Positions 1 to 5,906 of a stretch of 5,906 nt of DNA are shown here, piece after piece. The notes under the pieces are model-generated. The model made no database searches, was not told where the DNA came from, and saw nothing but the letters and a program-made list of their open reading frames with translations. The stretch comes from a virus (Duplodnaviria; Heunggongvirae; Uroviricota; Caudoviricetes): the IMG/VR virus record IMGVR_UViG_2778261591_000026, positions 1 to 5,906 of that record, one strand, 5' to 3'. The position numbers and the translations under genes are program-made. Every line of letters begins with the position of its first letter. The first letter of the stretch is position 1.

Positions 1-153
1 AGGGTTGATGTTTATCAGGGGCAAAATGGTCAATCAATCACTCTTGAATTACTGAATGCAAAGATTGGATTTGCAGCTTCAGGAAATGGCCCGCAGCAGC
101 AAAGTAGTAACCAGCAGAACACTCCTGTATACGACGATTCCATCCCATTCTGA
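1..153 (+). CDS. 3' end of a gene (5' truncated by window edge); C-terminus resembles single-stranded DNA-binding protein (SSB)
   Basis: Frame 1 is open from position 1 to TGA at 151-153. Translation ends ...GNGPQQQSSNQQNTPVYDDSIPF: a Gly/Gln/Pro-rich low-complexity tail ending in an acidic D-D-x-I-P-F tip, like the canonical SSB C-terminal tip DDDIPF. Not in the ORF track because it has no in-window Met start. Confidence 0.45.
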   Translation, partial: RVDVYQGQNGQSITLELLNAKIGFAASGNGPQQQSSNQQNTPVYDDSIPF

Positions 154-176
154 TTCAGAAAAATAAGGATTTAATC

Positions 177-473
177 ATGCCAGCGCCTCTGTATGGTGCG
201 GATGACCCGCGCCGCTGTTCCGGCAATTCCATATCGGAGGTGCTGGAAAATATCAAGAATAATCTCGACGCGTTTCTTGCTCTGCCACCAGAAACAAAAG
301 AAGAACGGAAGTACCGACGCGATATACAACTCGCAGAAAAACAGGAAAAAGACCGAATAAACGAAACATCAATCCGACCATTCCGCAAAGCCACATATAC
401 CCACTTCCCTGAATATATCGACCCGCGCCTGCGTAATTACCGCTCACGCTATGGCGCTATCAGTAATGACTGA
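177..473 (+). CDS. Hypothetical phage protein, 98 aa
   Basis: ORF track entry; ATG at 177 preceded by AAGGA at 165-169; same strand and tight spacing with neighbours. No recognised family. Confidence 0.55.
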   Translation: MPAPLYGADDPRRCSGNSISEVLENIKNNLDAFLALPPETKEERKYRRDIQLAEKQEKDRINETSIRPFRKATYTHFPEYIDPRLRNYRSRYGAISND

Positions 474-483
474 GGAATTTACC

Positions 484-774
484 ATGAAAACAATGAAGCT
501 AAACATCGACCTCGGAAAATACGTTATTACCGGAACCAAACACGACCTGATTCTTAGTGAAAGAGGAATTATCAAAGAAGGCGAGAATGCAGGGAAAGAA
601 ACACTAAGCCGTATCGGTTATTACAGCAAGTTTGAGCATCTGGTTAAAGAATTATGCAACCGTGAAATCATGTTATCTCAGGCGCAGACGCTACAGGATA
701 TTCAGCAACATATCGAGAATTTAGGTGTGTCACTTAGCATGGCTATTGACCAGTTCGTGGAGAGTAAATCATGA
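484..774 (+). CDS. Hypothetical phage protein, 96 aa (an in-frame longer form could start at 451)
   Basis: ORF track gives 451..774. ATG at 484 is preceded by GAGGA at 473-477 with 6-nt spacing and begins right after the upstream stop (471-473), so 484 is the preferred start. Stop TGA 772-774 overlaps the next ATG (ATGA). Confidence 0.6.
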
Positions 775-938
775 GAGGACTTGCATACAATCCCGGCATT
801 CTTCCAGCAGAAATGATTATTCGCCAACGCGTAAAGCCAATGCCATCGAGAGAGGAATTGCTTAAGAGAAATTCTTTTCCTTCAGTGAATCAAAACAAAT
901 ATCTGAATGCGATGTGGCGTAAAGGAGGCAAGCAGTGA
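771..938 (+). CDS. Small hypothetical protein, 55 aa ([55 protein letters not shown]), absent from the ORF track
   Basis: ATG at 771 overlaps the upstream stop (ATGA); its stop TGA 936-938 overlaps the GTG start at 935 (GTGA). It exactly fills the gap in an otherwise coupled operon. GGAGAG lies at 759-764. Confidence 0.4.
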
Positions 939-1393
939 GCGAAATTAACTATAAAGAACTGCGCGAGGCGGCGAAACAGGCAACGCAAGATGAATGGGTA
1001 GCATATATTTTGCCGGGCCATAACGGCATTTATCCTGCGCGCACGTCTGAGGGTAGGCATTGCGGATACTTTATTGACTGGCCTGGTACTGATGGACAGA
1101 GGAACGCTAGTGCCAATGCCCGTTATATCGCGGCTATCCCACCAAAAGTTGCGCTGGACCTCCTAGGCGAAATTAAGCGCCTGGAGGACAAAAATATTGA
1201 TGCCATGTGCCAAATTGCAGAGCTGGAGAGCAATCGCGCGGCGCTGGCGGCGGAGCATGGTATTCAGATTGCAATAAATGAACTGCTTGCTCTGGCCCCG
1301 CGTCTGGATAAACGAGCGGTGGATGCACTCTCTGTGGCTGTGGAGCACCTGTGTAAACTGATTAAGAAGGAGGCAGTCAGTGAGCAAAATTAA
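935..1393 (+). CDS. Ead/Ea22-like phage protein, 152 aa (paralog 1)
   Basis: GTG start at 935 with AAAGGAGG at 921-928. N-terminus [17 protein letters not shown]... resembles the N-terminal region I recall for lambda Ea22 and Ead-family proteins. Shares N-terminal and central motifs with the next ORF. Confidence 0.75.
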
Positions 1394-2054
1394 TTACCAG
1401 GCACTGCGTGAGGCGGCAGAGAAAGCAACGTGGGGAGACTGGGACTCATATAAACCACACCGTGGCGCACGTGGTTATGAGGTCCGACTAAGTAGTCAGG
1501 CCATTGCGCAACACGTCCTGAAAAACAACGCTGAATTTATTGCTGCCTTTAATCCAAAGATTGCTTTGGCACTACTGGATGAACGGGAAAGAAACCAGCA
1601 ATACATCAAACGCCGCGACCAGGAGAACGAGGATATTGCGCTAACGGTAGGGAAGCTGCGTGTTGAGCTGGAAGGCAAAGACAGCAAAATAGCCAATCTT
1701 ACCGCCGAACGCGATGCTCTTCGTGAAGGTGAGATGGGCGACGCTAGGCATAGCAACACACGGGCCGCAGCTGATATCTACTTCCAACTGGTCGAGGAGT
1801 GCGAAATTCCTGCTGGCCGTTCTCTGGTCGAGTACGTTGACGATATGCGCGAGAAGCTGGAAGCCGCAGAGAAGCGCATTGCTGAGCTGGAGTTGCGGGA
1901 GGTTGTGCTTCCGCAATGCTATAGCATGTTGCATCGCGTCGATTTTGACGAGCCTTACCACACTGAAATGGTTTACAGGCAGCATCAGGTTCTTGAGGCA
2001 CTGCACAACGCTGGAATAAACGTCACCGAAGCAGGTAAAGGAGAGGCATCATGA
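1380..2054 (+). CDS. Ead/Ea22-like phage protein, 224 aa (paralog 2), coiled-coil-rich middle and divergent C-terminal half
   Basis: GTG start at 1380 with AAGGAGG at 1366-1372. N-terminus [17 protein letters not shown]... and motif PKIALALLDERERNQQYIKRRDQENEDIALTVGKLRVELE resemble lambda Ea22 as I recall it. Stop TGA 2052-2054 overlaps next ATG 2051 (ATGA). Confidence 0.75.
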   Translation: MSKINYQALREAAEKATWGDWDSYKPHRGARGYEVRLSSQAIAQHVLKNNAEFIAAFNPKIALALLDERERNQQYIKRRDQENEDIALTVGKLRVELEGKDSKIANLTAERDALREGEMGDARHSNTRAAADIYFQLVEECEIPAGRSLVEYVDDMREKLEAAEKRIAELELREVVLPQCYSMLHRVDFDEPYHTEMVYRQHQVLEALHNAGINVTEAGKGEAS

Positions 2055-2578
2055 GCACTATCACAAGAGAATGGCTGCAGCAGACTATCAACGATTATGA
2101 AAGCGTTCGTGATGAGCTTCCTTTCGGGCTTGATGATTACCAGGGGAATATCCTGGCTGCCCTGCGTATCGCACTGGCATCGCTGGAAGCAGAGCCGGTG
2201 GCGTGGAAGGTAACATTCACGCAAATTGACCGTGAATATAACACGTTCACTGGTATGTATTCTGACAAAGCAGAAGTCGAACGGTGGGTGCGTCTGCATA
2301 AAGCATGTAATTTTCGGGCAGATATAACACCGCTTTATACCGCCAAGCCAGTGCCGGTAACTCCGGATGGTTGGATAAGCTGTAGTGAGCGAATGCCGGA
2401 AATTAGACAAACAGTTATTGGATGGAATGGATATGCAGTTAGACAATGCGTATATACAAGGAATGAATATGCCAAGACACAGAAAGGCAGAGAGCCAAGG
2501 TTTGAAACCTTAACTGGTATATGGCATGGAGTAACCCACTGGATGCCGCTACCAGAACCGCCGCAGGAGGTGAAGTGA
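2051..2578 (+). CDS. Phage protein with DUF551-like C-terminal region, 175 aa
   Basis: ATG 2051 preceded by GGAGAGG. C-terminal segment ...PDGWISCSERMPE...GW...THWMPLPEPP matches my recollection of the DUF551 signature common in lambdoid prophage accessory regions. Stop 2576-2578 overlaps next ATG 2578. Confidence 0.75.
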   Translation: MSTITREWLQQTINDYESVRDELPFGLDDYQGNILAALRIALASLEAEPVAWKVTFTQIDREYNTFTGMYSDKAEVERWVRLHKACNFRADITPLYTAKPVPVTPDGWISCSERMPEIRQTVIGWNGYAVRQCVYTRNEYAKTQKGREPRFETLTGIWHGVTHWMPLPEPPQEVK

Positions 2579-2856
2579 TGGACTCCTTCGCGAAATATAC
2601 GATTATTGACTGGATAGCCTTCCTTCAGGTTTTGCTCATCTGGTTTTATATGGCTTACAGGAGTGGACAGTGGATTGTCAGTGTAGCCTGTAGCAAGGGA
2701 TGGCGTTGGTGGAACCGGAAGAATAAAAAAGCACTGGCATTGGATTCGTTTTACGAAGCATTCAATCTTAACAGCCTTCAACCTGGTTCTGTCATTGTAG
2801 TCACCACTCAAAGCGGCATGACCATTCAGATTCATAAACCAAAAGAGGAAAAATGA
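2578..2856 (+). CDS. Small predicted membrane protein, 92 aa (the ORF track's 2521 start is an in-frame extension inside the upstream gene)
   Basis: ATG 2578 with GGAGG at 2566-2570 (7-nt spacing), coupled to the upstream stop. Translation has one strongly hydrophobic segment (IIDWIAFLQVLLIWFYMAY) followed by a basic patch (KGWRWWNRKNKK) and a roughly 45-aa tail. No recognised family. Confidence 0.55.
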   Translation: MDSFAKYTIIDWIAFLQVLLIWFYMAYRSGQWIVSVACSKGWRWWNRKNKKALALDSFYEAFNLNSLQPGSVIVVTTQSGMTIQIHKPKEEK

Positions 2857-2942
2857 TGTGGCCTATATGTGTTAATTGCGGACGGATGTGCCTATCTGGA
2901 TGGTGCCGAAAGTGCGACAAATGCACGAAGCAAAGACAATAA
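2853..2942 (+). CDS. Candidate Cys-rich micro-protein, 29 aa (MMWPICVNCGRMCLSGWCRKCDKCTKQRQ), possible zinc-ribbon-like peptide
   Basis: ATG 2853 overlaps the upstream stop 2854-2856 (ATGA); purine-rich AGAGGA at 2844-2849. Six Cys in 29 residues arranged CxxC-x3-C-x4-CxxCxxC. Too short for the ORF track; coding status unproven. Confidence 0.3.
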   Translation: MMWPICVNCGRMCLSGWCRKCDKCTKQRQ

Positions 2943-2976
2943 CAATCCTCGCACTCGCGGGGATTTCTTTTATCTG

Positions 2977-3002
2977 AACTCGCTACGGCGAGTTTTGTTT
3001 TA
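2977..3002 (+). terminator. Candidate hairpin plus U-rich tract (weak intrinsic terminator or RNA structural element)
   Basis: AACTCGC (2977-2983) pairs with GCGAGTT (2988-2994) around a 4-nt loop TACG, followed by TTGTTTTA. Lies in the 72-bp non-coding gap before the 55-aa ORF. Confidence 0.25.
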
Positions 3003-3014
3003 TGGAGATGATAA

Positions 3015-3182
3015 ATGCACTTCCGAGTCACAGGCGAATGGAATGGAGAGCCATTCAACAGAGTTATCGAAGCAGAGGACATCAATGACTGCTATAACCA
3101 CTGGATGATATGGGCGCAGATAGCAAATGCAGACATAACCAATATTCGAATTGAAGAACTGAAAGAACACCAAACCGCCTGA
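3015..3182 (+). CDS. Small hypothetical phage protein, 55 aa (MHFRVTGEWNGEPFNRVIEAEDINDCYNHWMIWAQIANADITNIRIEELKEHQTA); same position as the small ORF preceding xis in lambda
   Basis: ATG 3015 preceded by GGAGA at 3004-3008 (6-nt spacing); clean translation. Prefer this over the overlapping track ORF 2869..3108, which has no RBS and runs across the 2977-3002 hairpin. Confidence 0.55.
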   Translation: MHFRVTGEWNGEPFNRVIEAEDINDCYNHWMIWAQIANADITNIRIEELKEHQTA

Positions 3183-3196
3183 TGGCGGTTTTTTCT
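3173..3196 (+). terminator. Candidate rho-independent terminator directly after the 55-aa ORF
   Basis: AACCGCC (3173-3179) pairs with GGCGGTT (3184-3190), a 7-bp stem with 5 GC pairs and loop TGAT, followed by TTTTTCTT. The ORF stop codon sits in the loop. Confidence 0.4.
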
Positions 3197-3235
3197 TGCG
3201 AGTAATTGCGGAGACTTTGCGATGTACTTGACACT
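3196..3235 (+). promoter_or_regulatory. Probable cII-activated pI-type promoter for int (cII half-sites TTGC-N6-TTGC at 3196-3209), overlapping the xis start
   Basis: TTGC at 3196-3199 and 3206-3209 separated by 6 nt, the spacing of cII sites in lambda pRE/pI/paQ. Location at the 5' end of xis matches the known position of lambda pI. Confidence 0.5.
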
Positions 3236-3440
3236 TCAGGAGTGGAACGCACGCCAGCGACGTCCAAGAAGCCTTGAAACAGTTCGTCGATGGGTGCGCG
3301 AATGCAGGATATTCCCTCCTCCGGTTAAGGATGGAAGAGAGTATCTGTTCCACGAATCAGCGGTAAAGGTTGACTTAAATCGACCAGTAACAGGTAGCCT
3401 TTTGAAGAGGATCAGAAATGGGAAGAAGGCGAAGTCATGA
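3222..3440 (+). CDS. xis: Excisionase Xis, 72 aa, lambda type
   Basis: Translation MYLTLQEWNARQRRPRSLETVRRWVRECRIFPPPVKDGREYLFHESAVKVDLNRP... is recognisable as lambda Xis. Overlaps int by 23 nt as in lambda. Confidence 0.95.
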   Translation: MYLTLQEWNARQRRPRSLETVRRWVRECRIFPPPVKDGREYLFHESAVKVDLNRPVTGSLLKRIRNGKKAKS

Positions 3441-4488
3441 GCGCCGGGATTTACCCCCTAACCTTTATATAAGAAACAATGGATATTACTGCTACAGGGA
3501 CCCAAGGACGGGTAAAGAGTTTGGATTAGGCCGAGACAGGAGGATAGCAATCACTGAAGCAATACAGGCCAACATTGAGTTATTTTCAGGACACAAACAC
3601 AAGCCTCTGACAGCGAGAATCAACAGTGATAATTCTGTTACGTTACATTCATGGCTTGATCGCTACGAAAAAATACTCGCCAGCAGAGGAATCAAGCAGA
3701 AGACACTCATAAATTACATGAGCAAAATTAAAGCAATAAGGAGGGGTCTGCCTGATGCTCCAATTGAAGACATCACCACAAAAGAAATTGCGGCAATGCT
3801 CAATGGATACATAGACGAGGGCAAGGCGGCGTCAGCCAAGTTAATCAGATCAACACTGAGCGATGCATTCCGAGAGGCAATAGCTGAAGGCCATATAACA
3901 ACAAACCCGGTCGCTGCCACTCGCGCAGCAAAATCAGAGGTAAGGAGATCAAGACTTACGGCTGACGAATACCTGAAAATTTATCAAGCAGCAGAATCAT
4001 CACCATGTTGGCTCAGACTTGCAATGGAACTGGCTGTTGTTACCGGGCAGCGAGTTGGTGATTTATGCGAAATGAAGTGGTCTGATATCGTAGATGGATA
4101 TCTTTATGTCGAGCAAAGCAAAACAGGCGTAAAAATTGCCATCCCTACAACATTGCATGTTGATGCTCTCGGGATATCAATGAAGGAAACACTTGATAAA
4201 TGCAAAGAGATTCTTGGCGGAGAAACCATAATTGCATCTACTCGTCGTGAACCGCTTTCATCCGGAACAGTATCAAGGTATTTTATGCGCGCACGAAAAG
4301 CATCAGGTCTTTCCTTCGAAGGGGATCCGCCTACCTTTCACGAGTTGCGCAGTTTGTCTGCAAGACTCTATGAGAAGCAGATAAGCGATAAATTTGCTCA
4401 ACATCTTCTCGGGCATAAGTCGGACACCATGGCATCACAGTATCGTGATGACAGAGGCAGGGAGTGGGACAAAATTGAAATCAAATAA
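3418..4488 (+). CDS. int: Tyrosine site-specific integrase Int, 356 aa, lambda type
   Basis: Translation MGRRRSHERRDLPPNLYIRNNGYYCYRDPRTGKEFGLGRD... ending ...HLLGHKSDTMASQYRDDRGREWDKIEIK is recognisable as lambda Int. HxxR motif (HELR) present and the catalytic Tyr codon TAT is at 4441-4443 (residue 342). Confidence 0.97.
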   Translation: MGRRRSHERRDLPPNLYIRNNGYYCYRDPRTGKEFGLGRDRRIAITEAIQANIELFSGHKHKPLTARINSDNSVTLHSWLDRYEKILASRGIKQKTLINYMSKIKAIRRGLPDAPIEDITTKEIAAMLNGYIDEGKAASAKLIRSTLSDAFREAIAEGHITTNPVAATRAAKSEVRRSRLTADEYLKIYQAAESSPCWLRLAMELAVVTGQRVGDLCEMKWSDIVDGYLYVEQSKTGVKIAIPTTLHVDALGISMKETLDKCKEILGGETIIASTRREPLSSGTVSRYFMRARKASGLSFEGDPPTFHELRSLSARLYEKQISDKFAQHLLGHKSDTMASQYRDDRGREWDKIEIK

Positions 4489-4561
4489 TGATTTTATTTT
4501 GACTGATAGTGACCTGTTCGTTGCAACAAATTGATAAGCAATGCTTTTTTATAATGCCAAC
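4485..4561. other. attP P' arm: Int arm-type sites P'1-P'3 (about 4485-4513, reverse-complement orientation) and IHF H' site (about 4524-4536)
   Basis: Sequence caaataatgattttattttgactgatagtgacctgttcgttgcaacaaattgataagcaatgc is the reverse complement of the lambda P' arm as I recall it. It contains ATAGTGAC arm-type motifs and caacaaattgata, the reverse complement of an IHF-consensus-like TATCAATTTGTTG. Confidence 0.8.
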
Positions 4562-4576
4562 TTAGTATAAAAAAGC
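4562..4576. other. att core (common core O) of the prophage/host junction, attL (B-O-P') read on the opposite strand
   Basis: TTAGTATAAAAAAGC is the reverse complement of the lambda core GCTTTTTTATACTAA. Left flank (ccaac) continues as P' arm; right flank (aggcttcaacgg) continues as host attB arm. Confidence 0.9.
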
Positions 4577-4622
4577 AGGCTTCAACGGATTCATTTTTCT
4601 ATTTCATAGCCCGGAGCAACCT

Positions 4623-5906
4623 GTGAACACATTTTCAGTTTCCCGTCTGGCGCTGGCATTGGCTTTTGGCGTGACGCTGACCGCCTGTAGCTCAACCCCG
4701 CCCGATCAACGTCCTTCTGATCAAACCGCGCCTGGTACCTCTTCTCGCCCGATTCTGTCGGCAAAAGAAGCGCAGAATTTCGATGCTCAACACTATTTTG
4801 CATCCCTGACACCAGGTGCTGCAGCGTGGAATCCTTCCCCGATTACCCTGCCTGCGCAACCTGACTTTGTTGTCGGCCCGGCGGGCACTCAAGGTGTAAC
4901 GCATACCACGATTCAGGCGGCGGTAGATGCGGCAATTATCAAGCGTACCAACAAGCGCCAGTATATTGCCGTGATGCCTGGTGAGTATCAGGGAACGGTA
5001 TATGTCCCTGCCGCTCCGGGTGGAATTACTCTGTACGGTACAGGTGAAAAACCGATTGATGTGAAGATTGGGCTTTCCCTTGATGGTGGCATGAGCCCTG
5101 CCGACTGGCGTCACGACGTCAACCCGCGCGGCAAATATATGCCAGGTAAACCAGCGTGGTATATGTACGATAGCTGCCAGAGCAAACGCAGCGACAGTAT
5201 CGGTGTTCTCTGCTCTGCGGTCTTCTGGTCACAAAACAATGGCCTGCAACTGCAAAATCTGACCATCGAAAACACGCTGGGCGATAGCGTAGATGCAGGT
5301 AACCATCCGGCGGTGGCACTGCGTACTGATGGTGACCAGGTACAGATTAACAACGTTAACATTCTCGGTCGTCAGAACACCTTCTTTGTCACCAACAGCG
5401 GTGTGCAGAACCGTCTGGAAACGAATCGTCAGCCGCGTACGCTGGTGACCAACAGCTACATTGAAGGGGATGTGGATATCGTTTCTGGTCGCGGCGCAGT
5501 GGTGTTCGATAACACCGAATTCCGCGTGGTGAACTCACGTACTCAGCAAGAAGCGTATGTGTTTGCACCGGCTACGCTGTCCAACATTTACTACGGTTTC
5601 CTCGCCGTAAACAGCCGTTTCAATGCTTTCGGTGATGGTGTGGCGCAACTGGGCCGCTCGCTGGATGTTGATGCCAATACCAACGGTCAGGTGGTGATCC
5701 GTGATAGCGCCATCAACGAAGGTTTTAACACGGCTAAACCGTGGGCCGATGCGGTGATCTCTAATCGTCCGTTTGCGGGTAATACCGGCAGCGTAAATGA
5801 TAACGACGAAATACAGCGCAATCTGAATGACACTAACTACAACCGCATGTGGGAATACAATAACCGCGGCGTGGGTAGTAAAGTGGTTGCAGAGGCGAAG
5901 AAGTAA
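4623..5906 (+). CDS. ybhC: Host outer-membrane lipoprotein YbhC, 427 aa (pectinesterase-like, carbohydrate esterase family 8 fold)
   Basis: GTG start at 4623 with GGAG at 4612-4615. Signal peptide with lipobox L-T-A-C (Cys22). Sequence recognisable as E. coli YbhC, the gene next to attB-lambda. Stop TAA at 5904-5906 is the last codon in the window. Confidence 0.93.
   Translation: MNTFSVSRLALALAFGVTLTACSSTPPDQRPSDQTAPGTSSRPILSAKEAQNFDAQHYFASLTPGAAAWNPSPITLPAQPDFVVGPAGTQGVTHTTIQAAVDAAIIKRTNKRQYIAVMPGEYQGTVYVPAAPGGITLYGTGEKPIDVKIGLSLDGGMSPADWRHDVNPRGKYMPGKPAWYMYDSCQSKRSDSIGVLCSAVFWSQNNGLQLQNLTIENTLGDSVDAGNHPAVALRTDGDQVQINNVNILGRQNTFFVTNSGVQNRLETNRQPRTLVTNSYIEGDVDIVSGRGAVVFDNTEFRVVNSRTQQEAYVFAPATLSNIYYGFLAVNSRFNAFGDGVAQLGRSLDVDANTNGQVVIRDSAINEGFNTAKPWADAVISNRPFAGNTGSVNDNDEIQRNLNDTNYNRMWEYNNRGVGSKVVAEAKK

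Follow-up and report, generated by a model that had tools for sequence, protein, structure and literature searches.

Do two overlapping open reading frames (ORFs) in a lambdoid prophage form a functional pair, and is the shorter of them, 29 codons in length, a gene at all? The question is raised by the stretch of viral DNA analyzed here (Caudoviricetes; positions 1 to 5,906 of IMG/VR record IMGVR_UViG_2778261591_000026), whose full 5,906 nucleotides are referred to as the window. In it, a gene encoding a 92-amino-acid protein runs into a cysteine-rich micro-ORF. A preliminary description had reported both ORFs at the positions listed in Table 1, together with the ATGA in which they overlap, and all of this is seen in the sequence; the observation is confirmed and its interpretation partly supported. 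The explanation that we favor, with somewhat better than even confidence, is that an ordinary DUF4752 gene is followed by a real micro-gene whose product is a putative four-cysteine (Cys4) zinc peptide, expressed early and directed at the host. Both ORFs are separate accessory genes of the early-left ("exo-xis" or ea) region of the prophage. The DUF4752 family and one annotation of the micro-gene, HK106 gp30, were already known.

A micro-gene family in unrelated phages

Read from its first ATG (2853-2855, overlapping the DUF4752 stop codon TGA at 2854-2856), the micro-ORF encodes 29 amino acids, MMWPICVNCGRMCLSGWCRKCDKCTKQRQ, with six cysteines in a CxxC...C...CxxCxxC pattern, and closes with a stop codon at 2940-2942. 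The peptide is basic (isoelectric point about 9) and contains two invariant tryptophans. Its start is most likely the second ATG, at 2856, and its product 28 amino acids long, because all homologues begin with MWPIC, because the upstream GAGG (Table 1) is spaced 7 nt from this codon but only 4 nt from the first ATG, and because in one locus (L006) the first ATG is destroyed and the second retained. The change responsible in L006 (1776-1780) turns the DUF4752 stop codon TGA into TTA, and the DUF4752 protein there runs on for 163 amino acids through the micro-gene region in another frame.

Homologues were sought by tblastn against 50,697 phage records and by degenerate DNA patterns. The tblastn search returned near-identical copies in lambdoid and P22-like phages and, at 64-76% amino acid identity, homologues in the virulent siphoviruses C1, KFS-SE2, ST1UNAM, ZCEC08 and CF-SP1 and in the 154-kb Citrobacter phage Tr1; all of these diverged copies fall in unannotated gaps. 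Taken over lambdoid and P22-like prophages as well as the virulent siphoviruses and Tr1, diverged copies have 64-79% amino acid identity. With phage C1, the window shares DNA similarity over 2856-2920 only. Pattern scans added a further 76 IMG/VR and 39 metagenomic stretches. A pattern with nothing specified 5' of the first cysteine codon recovered only peptides starting with MWP[I/L]C, and a second one, with no N-terminal codon specified, returned only MWPIC peptides, bar one chance match. Fourteen distinct peptides of the family, 24-28 amino acids long (24-29 if the 29-residue reading is included), align without gaps over the core MWPIC-x2-CGRMC-x3-WC-x2-CD. Fourteen residues are invariant, namely M1, W2, P3, I4, C5, C8, G9, R10, M11, C12, W16, C17, C20 and D21 (numbered from MWPIC). 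The six-cysteine pattern noted in the preliminary description is present in the window ORF, but only five of these cysteines are kept in homologues; the sixth (C24 of the 29-residue reading) sits in a C-terminal extension, CTK[QK]RQ, restricted to the lambdoid subgroup. The K26 variant of the peptide is encoded on a metagenome contig (ERZ1031114.1538, L176) that matches the window exactly in length, 5906 nt, but differs from it in sequence and in the offset of the micro-gene.

Evidence for coding came from 14 distinct DNA cores of 23 codons. In the ORF frame (+0), which is open in 14 of 14 distinct sequences, the proportion of synonymous differences is saturated (pS 0.83) and that of non-synonymous differences is 0.13 (pN), giving a pN/pS of 0.16. 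Over codons 13-23, where no search pattern imposed a constraint, the corresponding values are 0.90, 0.24 and 0.27, and the other five frames over the same cores range from 0.34 to 2.3. Every family member has a purine-rich, GGAGG-like Shine-Dalgarno sequence 5-7 nt upstream, and in nearly every context the start lies no more than 1 nt from the preceding stop. Segregating sites, counted in 122 close lambdoid copies, are least dense in the micro-ORF (0.155), compared with 0.268 in DUF4752 and 0.486 in the downstream intergenic region. Taken together, these patterns identify the micro-ORF as a genuine, conserved protein-coding gene under strong purifying selection across unrelated phages. It is judged to be more than a chance ORF because of this codon-level conservation; the cysteine content alone would not be decisive.

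Several observations weigh against the favored explanation. Rare variants among the close lambdoid copies are mostly non-synonymous (10 versus 3, ratio 0.76) and include the cysteine losses C20R and C20Y, so that short-term constraint is undetectable and some prophage copies are decaying. The copy in JEP4 (L165 601-690) has lost three of the five conserved cysteines (C8R, C12R and C17F) with its frame still open; it seems to be decaying, although the phage genome is otherwise complete. Because of this triple loss and the rare cysteine-loss variants in other prophages, the micro-gene is dispensable. Conservation of the micro-ORF frame, which the preliminary description had named as a check of its proposal, is evident across phages. 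Part of the family was also collected with patterns fixing codons 1-12, where conservation is partly by construction; the tblastn matches and codons 13-23 are free of this bias. Finally, a pattern scan of one genome per species gave no true member, and the family is small and narrow.

The seven matches of that scan were rejected as start-less frames or low-complexity Cys/Trp stretches from Rhodobacterales and Clostridia metagenome-assembled genomes. A C-x-G-C-G-K-M-C-K-x-x-W-C-x-x-C stretch recurs in short start-less frames of five such genomes from gut Clostridia/Lachnospiraceae (L168-L172); it probably reflects a conserved gene read in another frame and is unrelated to the phage family. An exhaustive HMMER search with the 31-residue translation against 1.84 billion representatives returned one match, a 157-amino-acid protein with four tandem SGFCQECDRCTTLQRQ repeats that inflate the E-value, and was judged uninformative.

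Some of these points would suit a micro-ORF without a functional peptide, that is, a chance ORF or remnant, a short ORF that matters only through its translation, masking the adjacent hairpin or handing ribosomes on to it, or an RNA or DNA element. The stop codon adjoins hairpin 1 (Table 1), shallow polymorphism is mostly non-synonymous, the copy that lost three cysteines is still open, and the ORF is cut by a deletion in locus L025 and has its stop replaced in L031. We nevertheless regard this as very improbable. Amino acid conservation with saturated synonymous change is found in one frame only, the invariant residues include non-cysteine W, P, I, G, R, M and D, and the downstream context varies between phages, with tandem terminators in the window, a bidirectional terminator in the siphoviruses, and the next gene 1-4 nt away in Tr1 and in prophages with TraR-type and NinX-like genes. 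An Rfam search of the window gave no family match; its only hit, a Leu-leader on the minus strand over the hairpins, was rejected, scoring 20.8 bits against a gathering score of 50. Origin as a remnant of a larger cysteine-rich gene was suggested by L025, where a deletion fuses the micro-ORF to the 3' part of a gene for a 113-amino-acid cysteine-rich protein, and was rejected since the full arrangement in L031 has the two as separate genes.

As the preliminary description anticipated, the micro-gene lies below ordinary annotation thresholds. Of 183 E. coli genomes with the micro-gene, not one has it annotated by RefSeq/PGAP, nor does any virulent phage record that was examined, and nothing is annotated at its position in two genomes carrying a subgroup linked to a TraR-type gene. 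The only correct annotation found is HK106 gp30 (YP_007151700.1 / AFH20718.1, UniProt K7P872), a "hypothetical protein" with the identical 29 amino acids at the same position behind DUF4752, recorded without family, function or comparison. Two public calls cover the micro-gene DNA in a wrong frame, mEp213 gp28 (79 amino acids) and Dewey CDS0021 (33 amino acids), corresponding to window positions 2869-3108 and 2876-2977 on the + strand. The former overlaps both the micro-gene and a conserved 55-amino-acid ORF downstream, and neither frame has coding-type conservation. No NCBIfam or PADLOC match was obtained for the micro-protein, and neither the best Pfam match across the 14 members (E 0.25) nor the best PHROG match (E 0.28) is significant. 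A "DUF1244" label on three third-party annotation (TPA) metagenome records with the 29-residue sequence was not reproduced by Pfam scans, and a cluster placing the peptide with TolC-like proteins of 473-480 amino acids is a clustering artefact. Literature searches, covering the exo-xis papers and, in full text, the peptide motif, turned up no description of the micro-gene. It defines a small unnamed family that is almost universally unannotated.

The micro-gene and its neighbors

If the DUF4752 protein and the cysteine-rich peptide formed one two-gene module, the peptide might regulate or partner a membrane effector involved in toxicity or phage exclusion. The ATGA overlap, which would give translational coupling, and the position of all lambdoid-type micro-gene copies behind a DUF4752 3' end are in keeping with such a module, which we nonetheless find quite improbable. 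The DNA of the lambdoid copies is 97% identical or more, and their shared neighborhood reflects recent common descent. With a gene-only query, DUF4752 was found at 601 places in 546 of 5426 complete E. coli genomes, as opposed to 197 places in 183 genomes for the micro-gene. As only about one third of DUF4752 copies are accompanied by the micro-gene, the two are not an obligate pair and their coupling is positional; otherwise DUF4752 precedes an ASCH-domain gene. Moreover, no defence model matched. The coupling proposed in the preliminary description thus holds for the overlap in the window, but not for a conserved two-gene system.

The micro-gene is found behind at least six unrelated upstream gene families in other phages. 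In one subgroup it is flanked by an upstream gene for a TraR/DksA-type zinc finger and by a NinX-like gene, in another it lies behind a 180-216-amino-acid "MKLIDLL..." protein, and in Tr1, L099 and L124 it follows other genes again. Mosaic joints surround it at about 2825-2851 and at the stop codon. Locus L098 is a case in point: homology to the window starts at 2825, behind an unrelated gene for 147 amino acids that keeps only ...IHKPKEEK, the last eight DUF4752 residues. Conversely, in some IMG/VR loci segment 2851-2937 is swapped for an ASCH-domain gene or other inserts, and shared sequence resumes at 2938. Comparison of these loci shows the micro-gene moving as a self-contained cassette of about 115 nt that comprises its ribosome-binding site and ORF.

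Two further arrangements were seen at these joints. In three IMG/VR loci (L062, L060 and L045), the micro-gene slot holds only the first 11 codons of the ASCH-domain gene (MANLQLAVKGE and a stop). These codons run into the common downstream sequence at the same AATAACAATCC junction and are therefore a scar that a deletion left at a recurring mosaic joint. A MKLIDLLVQELPK(R/H)GGW protein family with no Pfam match is encoded directly upstream of the micro-gene in virulent siphoviruses (L083-L085 and L158) and directly downstream of it in the lambdoid-type contig L124, reflecting either linkage or a coincidence of ea cassettes.

The DUF4752 half of the locus is less unusual. The preliminary description held that neither product resembles a named family, which stands for the micro-protein, with no significant family match, but not for the 92-amino-acid protein. 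The latter matches Pfam DUF4752 (PF15944) at 124.1 bits (E 2.4e-36; gathering score 27 bits) over residues 8-91, equivalent to profile positions 2-84 of 84 and thus full length, and phrog_667 at E 2e-38. PGAP, which names it DUF4752, places the start in an identical E. coli locus at window position 2578. On these profile matches it is an ordinary, typical member, full-length and with no difference from the family, which is limited to Enterobacteriaceae and reaches down to about 48% identity. The single hydrophobic helix and basic, tryptophan-containing patch originally described were borne out: a 19-residue Kyte-Doolittle maximum of 1.78 starts at residue 8, DeepTMHMM, as noted by another group, places a transmembrane helix at residues 9-27 of the near-identical protein from Kapi1, and the helix is followed by GWRWWNRKNKK, with seven K/R within residues 28-52. 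The GWRWWNR part is invariant in the family alignment. It is accordingly predicted to be a small single-pass inner-membrane protein, with its C-terminal two-thirds most likely in the cytoplasm by the positive-inside rule. An AlphaFold2 model from an 11-sequence alignment is of low confidence (predicted local distance difference test, pLDDT, 67) and has helices at 9-48 and 50-61 and strands at 72-76 and 82-86 forming a short beta hairpin; Foldseek found nothing meaningful with it (best E 1.4). PADLOC defence models matched neither protein, with nothing at E <= 1 for the 92-amino-acid one, and a literature search found no paper on the DUF4752 family.

Gene order and expression of the locus

The locus was assigned from sequence, Pfam, PHROG and the PGAP annotation of an identical E. 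coli locus. The prophage is lambdoid and sits in the lambda attachment site beside ybhC; the window covers its left arm, read along early-left transcription. In order, the window contains the last part of a gene whose product has an SSB-like tail, a P22-type Abc2 (anti-RecBCD protein 2), DUF5405, DUF2737, two Ead/Ea22-like genes, a DUF551 gene, the DUF4752 gene, the micro-ORF, a 55-amino-acid homologue of lambda orf55 (phrog_676), Xis, a lambda-type integrase and chromosomal ybhC. Features around the micro-gene are collected in Table 1.

Table 1. Position of the micro-gene and of adjoining features in the window
Feature	Coordinates	Strand	Basis
DUF551-domain gene, 175 amino acids	2051..2578	+	Pfam PF04448, E 7e-16; PGAP annotation of identical locus
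Shine-Dalgarno AGGAGG, 7 nt before DUF4752 start	2565..2570	+	read from sequence
DUF4752 gene, 92 amino acids and stop	2578..2856	+	ATG ORF; PF15944, phrog_667
DUF4752 3' end, carrying the micro-gene ribosome-binding site (GAGG 2845-2848)	2825..2852	+	travels with the micro-gene at mosaic joint
Micro-protein gene, 29 codons from first ATG; 28 amino acids from 2856 (MWPICVNCGRMCLSGWCRKCDKCTKQRQ)	2853..2942	+	
Terminator-like hairpin 1: 9-bp stem, loop ACTC, then TCTTTTATCT	2944..2975	+	consensus scan
Terminator-like hairpin 2: 8-bp stem, loop TACG, then TGTTTTATGG	2976..3005	+	consensus scan
Third terminator-like hairpin, bidirectional; after the 55-amino-acid ORF, just upstream of xis	3172-3199		

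Genes in the window form a chain of overlapping stops and starts in the early-left operon; the TGA of the DUF551 gene, for instance, overlaps the ATG of DUF4752 (TGATG). A scan of the whole window found one sigma-70 promoter-like site, compared with 7.8 +/- 3.1 in shuffled sequences, and none upstream of DUF4752 or the micro-gene. Depletion of such sites on the + strand of window 1-4400 fits one long early transcript. Since no promoter-like site was found upstream in the window, the micro-gene probably owes its expression to the early-left operon and is silent in the lysogen. A simple sigma-70 consensus was used, which a weak or atypical promoter could escape, and this too counts against the favored explanation. 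Terminator-like sites number four in the region versus 0.6 +/- 0.7 in shuffles. Hairpin 1 starts 2 nt past the micro-gene stop, and its pairing is mostly kept in 34 distinct copies; among the same copies, hairpin 2 varies at positions 2978 and 2991, where pairing is kept via G-U. In the literature, genes of the exo-xis region are described as being among the earliest transcribed (PMC8614690, PMC4195576), and the region as non-essential, with a possible influence on lysogenization and induction (PMC8614690, PMC3824215, PMC4195576).

These findings bear on the suggestion, made in the preliminary description, that the architecture of the DUF4752 protein is one seen in small phage membrane effectors, superinfection-exclusion or growth-inhibitory proteins among them. 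A membrane protein for exclusion or lysogenic conversion, expressed from the prophage, would agree with its small single-pass form and basic, Trp-rich juxtamembrane patch, and with its wide occurrence in prophages of the E. coli genomes searched. However, neither a promoter-like site upstream nor a terminator-like hairpin between DUF4752 and the upstream genes was found, leaving no sign of a separate transcription unit, and its start overlaps the preceding stop inside the early-left operon. The suggestion is weakened because expression is probably from the early operon and not in the lysogen, where superinfection exclusion would need it, and further by the presence of the micro-gene in virulent phages. 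It also gains nothing from the PADLOC and literature searches or from the low-confidence model with no fold match. Exclusion by a prophage-expressed protein is therefore unsupported, and we hold it to be unlikely; we read the DUF4752 product as a membrane protein of the early operon.

Other features of the left arm deserve brief mention. Window positions 1-153 are the 3' end of a gene whose product terminates in ...NTPVYDDSIPF, like the acidic DD(I/S)PF partner-recruiting tail of SSB; this 50-residue fragment has no Pfam match. The Ead/Ea22-like genes at 935-1393 and 1380-2054 are consecutive paralogues with near-identical N-termini, the second beginning inside the end of the first.

A putative zinc peptide and its possible role

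What might the micro-protein do? It carries a pair of CxxC knuckles at fixed spacing (C-x2-C-x8-C-x2-C), with C5, C8, C17 and C20, and also C12, invariant in 14 distinct sequences. Combined with a CxxCG first knuckle, this suggests a minimal zinc-ribbon design, and the zinc-ribbon-like layout proposed in the preliminary description is upheld at the level of sequence. Single-sequence AlphaFold2 returned a model with only isolated beta bridges, at a confidence (mean pLDDT 83) that is unusually high for so small a peptide. Four Foldseek matches to this model were obtained, all of them zinc modules (LIM, MYND and the RPC2 ribbon) and all with E >= 6.6. The best PDB sequence-profile match is likewise the RPC2 zinc ribbon (E 0.35), which is one of the four Foldseek matches at E 8.7, neither being significant. 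That the profile and structural similarities to zinc ribbons are statistically insignificant again weighs on the other side, and we regard the putative zinc-ribbon nature of the micro-protein as a well-motivated inference.

Comparison with known zinc proteins helps to place the peptide. The C-terminal zinc ribbon of RNA polymerase III RPC2 (PDB 5fj8_B, 7ast_M) has the same C-x2-C-G-x-M-x4-W-C-x2-C spacing (VCDKCGLMGYSGWCTTC versus ICkhCGRMClseWCrkC) and lies at 2.5 A over 21 columns from the model, but it is one short element within a protein that exceeds 1100 amino acids. This likeness is a structural analogy only, backing the predicted Cys4 metal site, and not homology. Like the haloarchaeal C(P)XCG zinc-finger micro-proteins, the phage peptide is stand-alone, very small and built on two CxxC knuckles, the first of them CxxCG. 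Unlike these archaeal, cellular proteins, it is phage-borne and 24-29 amino acids long, with CxxCD as second knuckle and a fifth invariant cysteine between the knuckles; the haloarchaeal examples are about twice its length. Micro-proteins of this kind are defined as shorter than 70 amino acids (PMC10716476), and in HVO_0758 and Brz of Halobacterium the two CxxC knuckles are presumed or shown to hold one zinc (PMC10716476, PMC2253796). When the C(P)XCG motif was applied to the phage family, the first knuckle, C-[VKRN]-[NHQ]-C-G, fitted and the second, C-x-[KR]-C-D, failed, and no sequence homology to the haloarchaeal proteins was detected.

Small zinc proteins are also at home in the exo-xis region. 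The micro-gene shares its neighborhood and, as far as can be predicted, early expression with the genes for Ea8.5 and Orf73, and one subgroup lies directly behind a TraR-type gene. Ea8.5 (about 93 amino acids) and Orf73 are roughly three times longer than the micro-protein, have different folds and show no sequence similarity to it. Both of these lambda proteins are small and zinc-binding, Ea8.5 being a homeodomain/zinc-finger hybrid and Orf73 a TraR/DksA-type C4 zinc finger (PMC8614690, PMC9239242); TraR, the reference homologue of Orf73, has 73 amino acids (PMC9239242).

A short peptide with 5-6 cysteines in 24-29 residues could also be the precursor of a ribosomally synthesized and post-translationally modified peptide (RiPP) or bacteriocin-like product, or a metallothionein-like metal sequesterer. 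We rate this as extremely improbable. No maturase, radical-SAM, protease or export gene adjoins the micro-gene in any context examined; its neighbors are DUF4752, the TraR-type zinc finger, NinX, MazG-like and unknown small proteins. The peptide has no signal or leader sequence, and it is conserved as a whole instead of as a leader with a variable core.

Returning to a Cys4 zinc peptide, we propose the following course of events. Transcription with the early operon would take place during lytic growth or induction and be off in a repressed lysogen, and translation would be coupled to whichever gene precedes the micro-gene. Four cysteines (C-x2-C-x8-C-x2-C) would then chelate one metal ion, most likely Zn2+, and the peptide would fold around it as a minimal zinc ribbon or knuckle, with a surface of conserved Trp, Arg, Lys and Asp that could bind a target. 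Because the gene is shared by temperate phages and virulent ones, on E. coli, Salmonella and Citrobacter, the most likely target is a protein or nucleic acid conserved in enterobacteria, on which the product would act as a host-directed modulator.

The DUF4752 half of the finding is ordinary. The micro-gene, a well-supported conserved phage gene, stands with its 24-29 codons at the lower limit of gene size and is overlooked by pipelines or placed in the wrong frame. Its signature is strong for its size, with 14 of 24 residues invariant, and the peptide can be synthesized chemically. Carriers of the gene, in their exo-xis region, include prophages of O26 and O111 strains as well as Stx1a-converting phages. 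More tentatively, and with doubts outweighing confidence, the MWPIC-CGRMC-WC-x2-CD peptide may be among the smallest autonomous phage effectors, a metal-stapled knuckle of 24-28 residues that modulates a conserved enterobacterial target (for example the transcription or replication machinery, or an immunity protein) and has spread between temperate and virulent phages as a cassette that standard gene callers miss. If a host target of this kind holds true, a minimal metal-stapled binder would be added to the known phage effectors.

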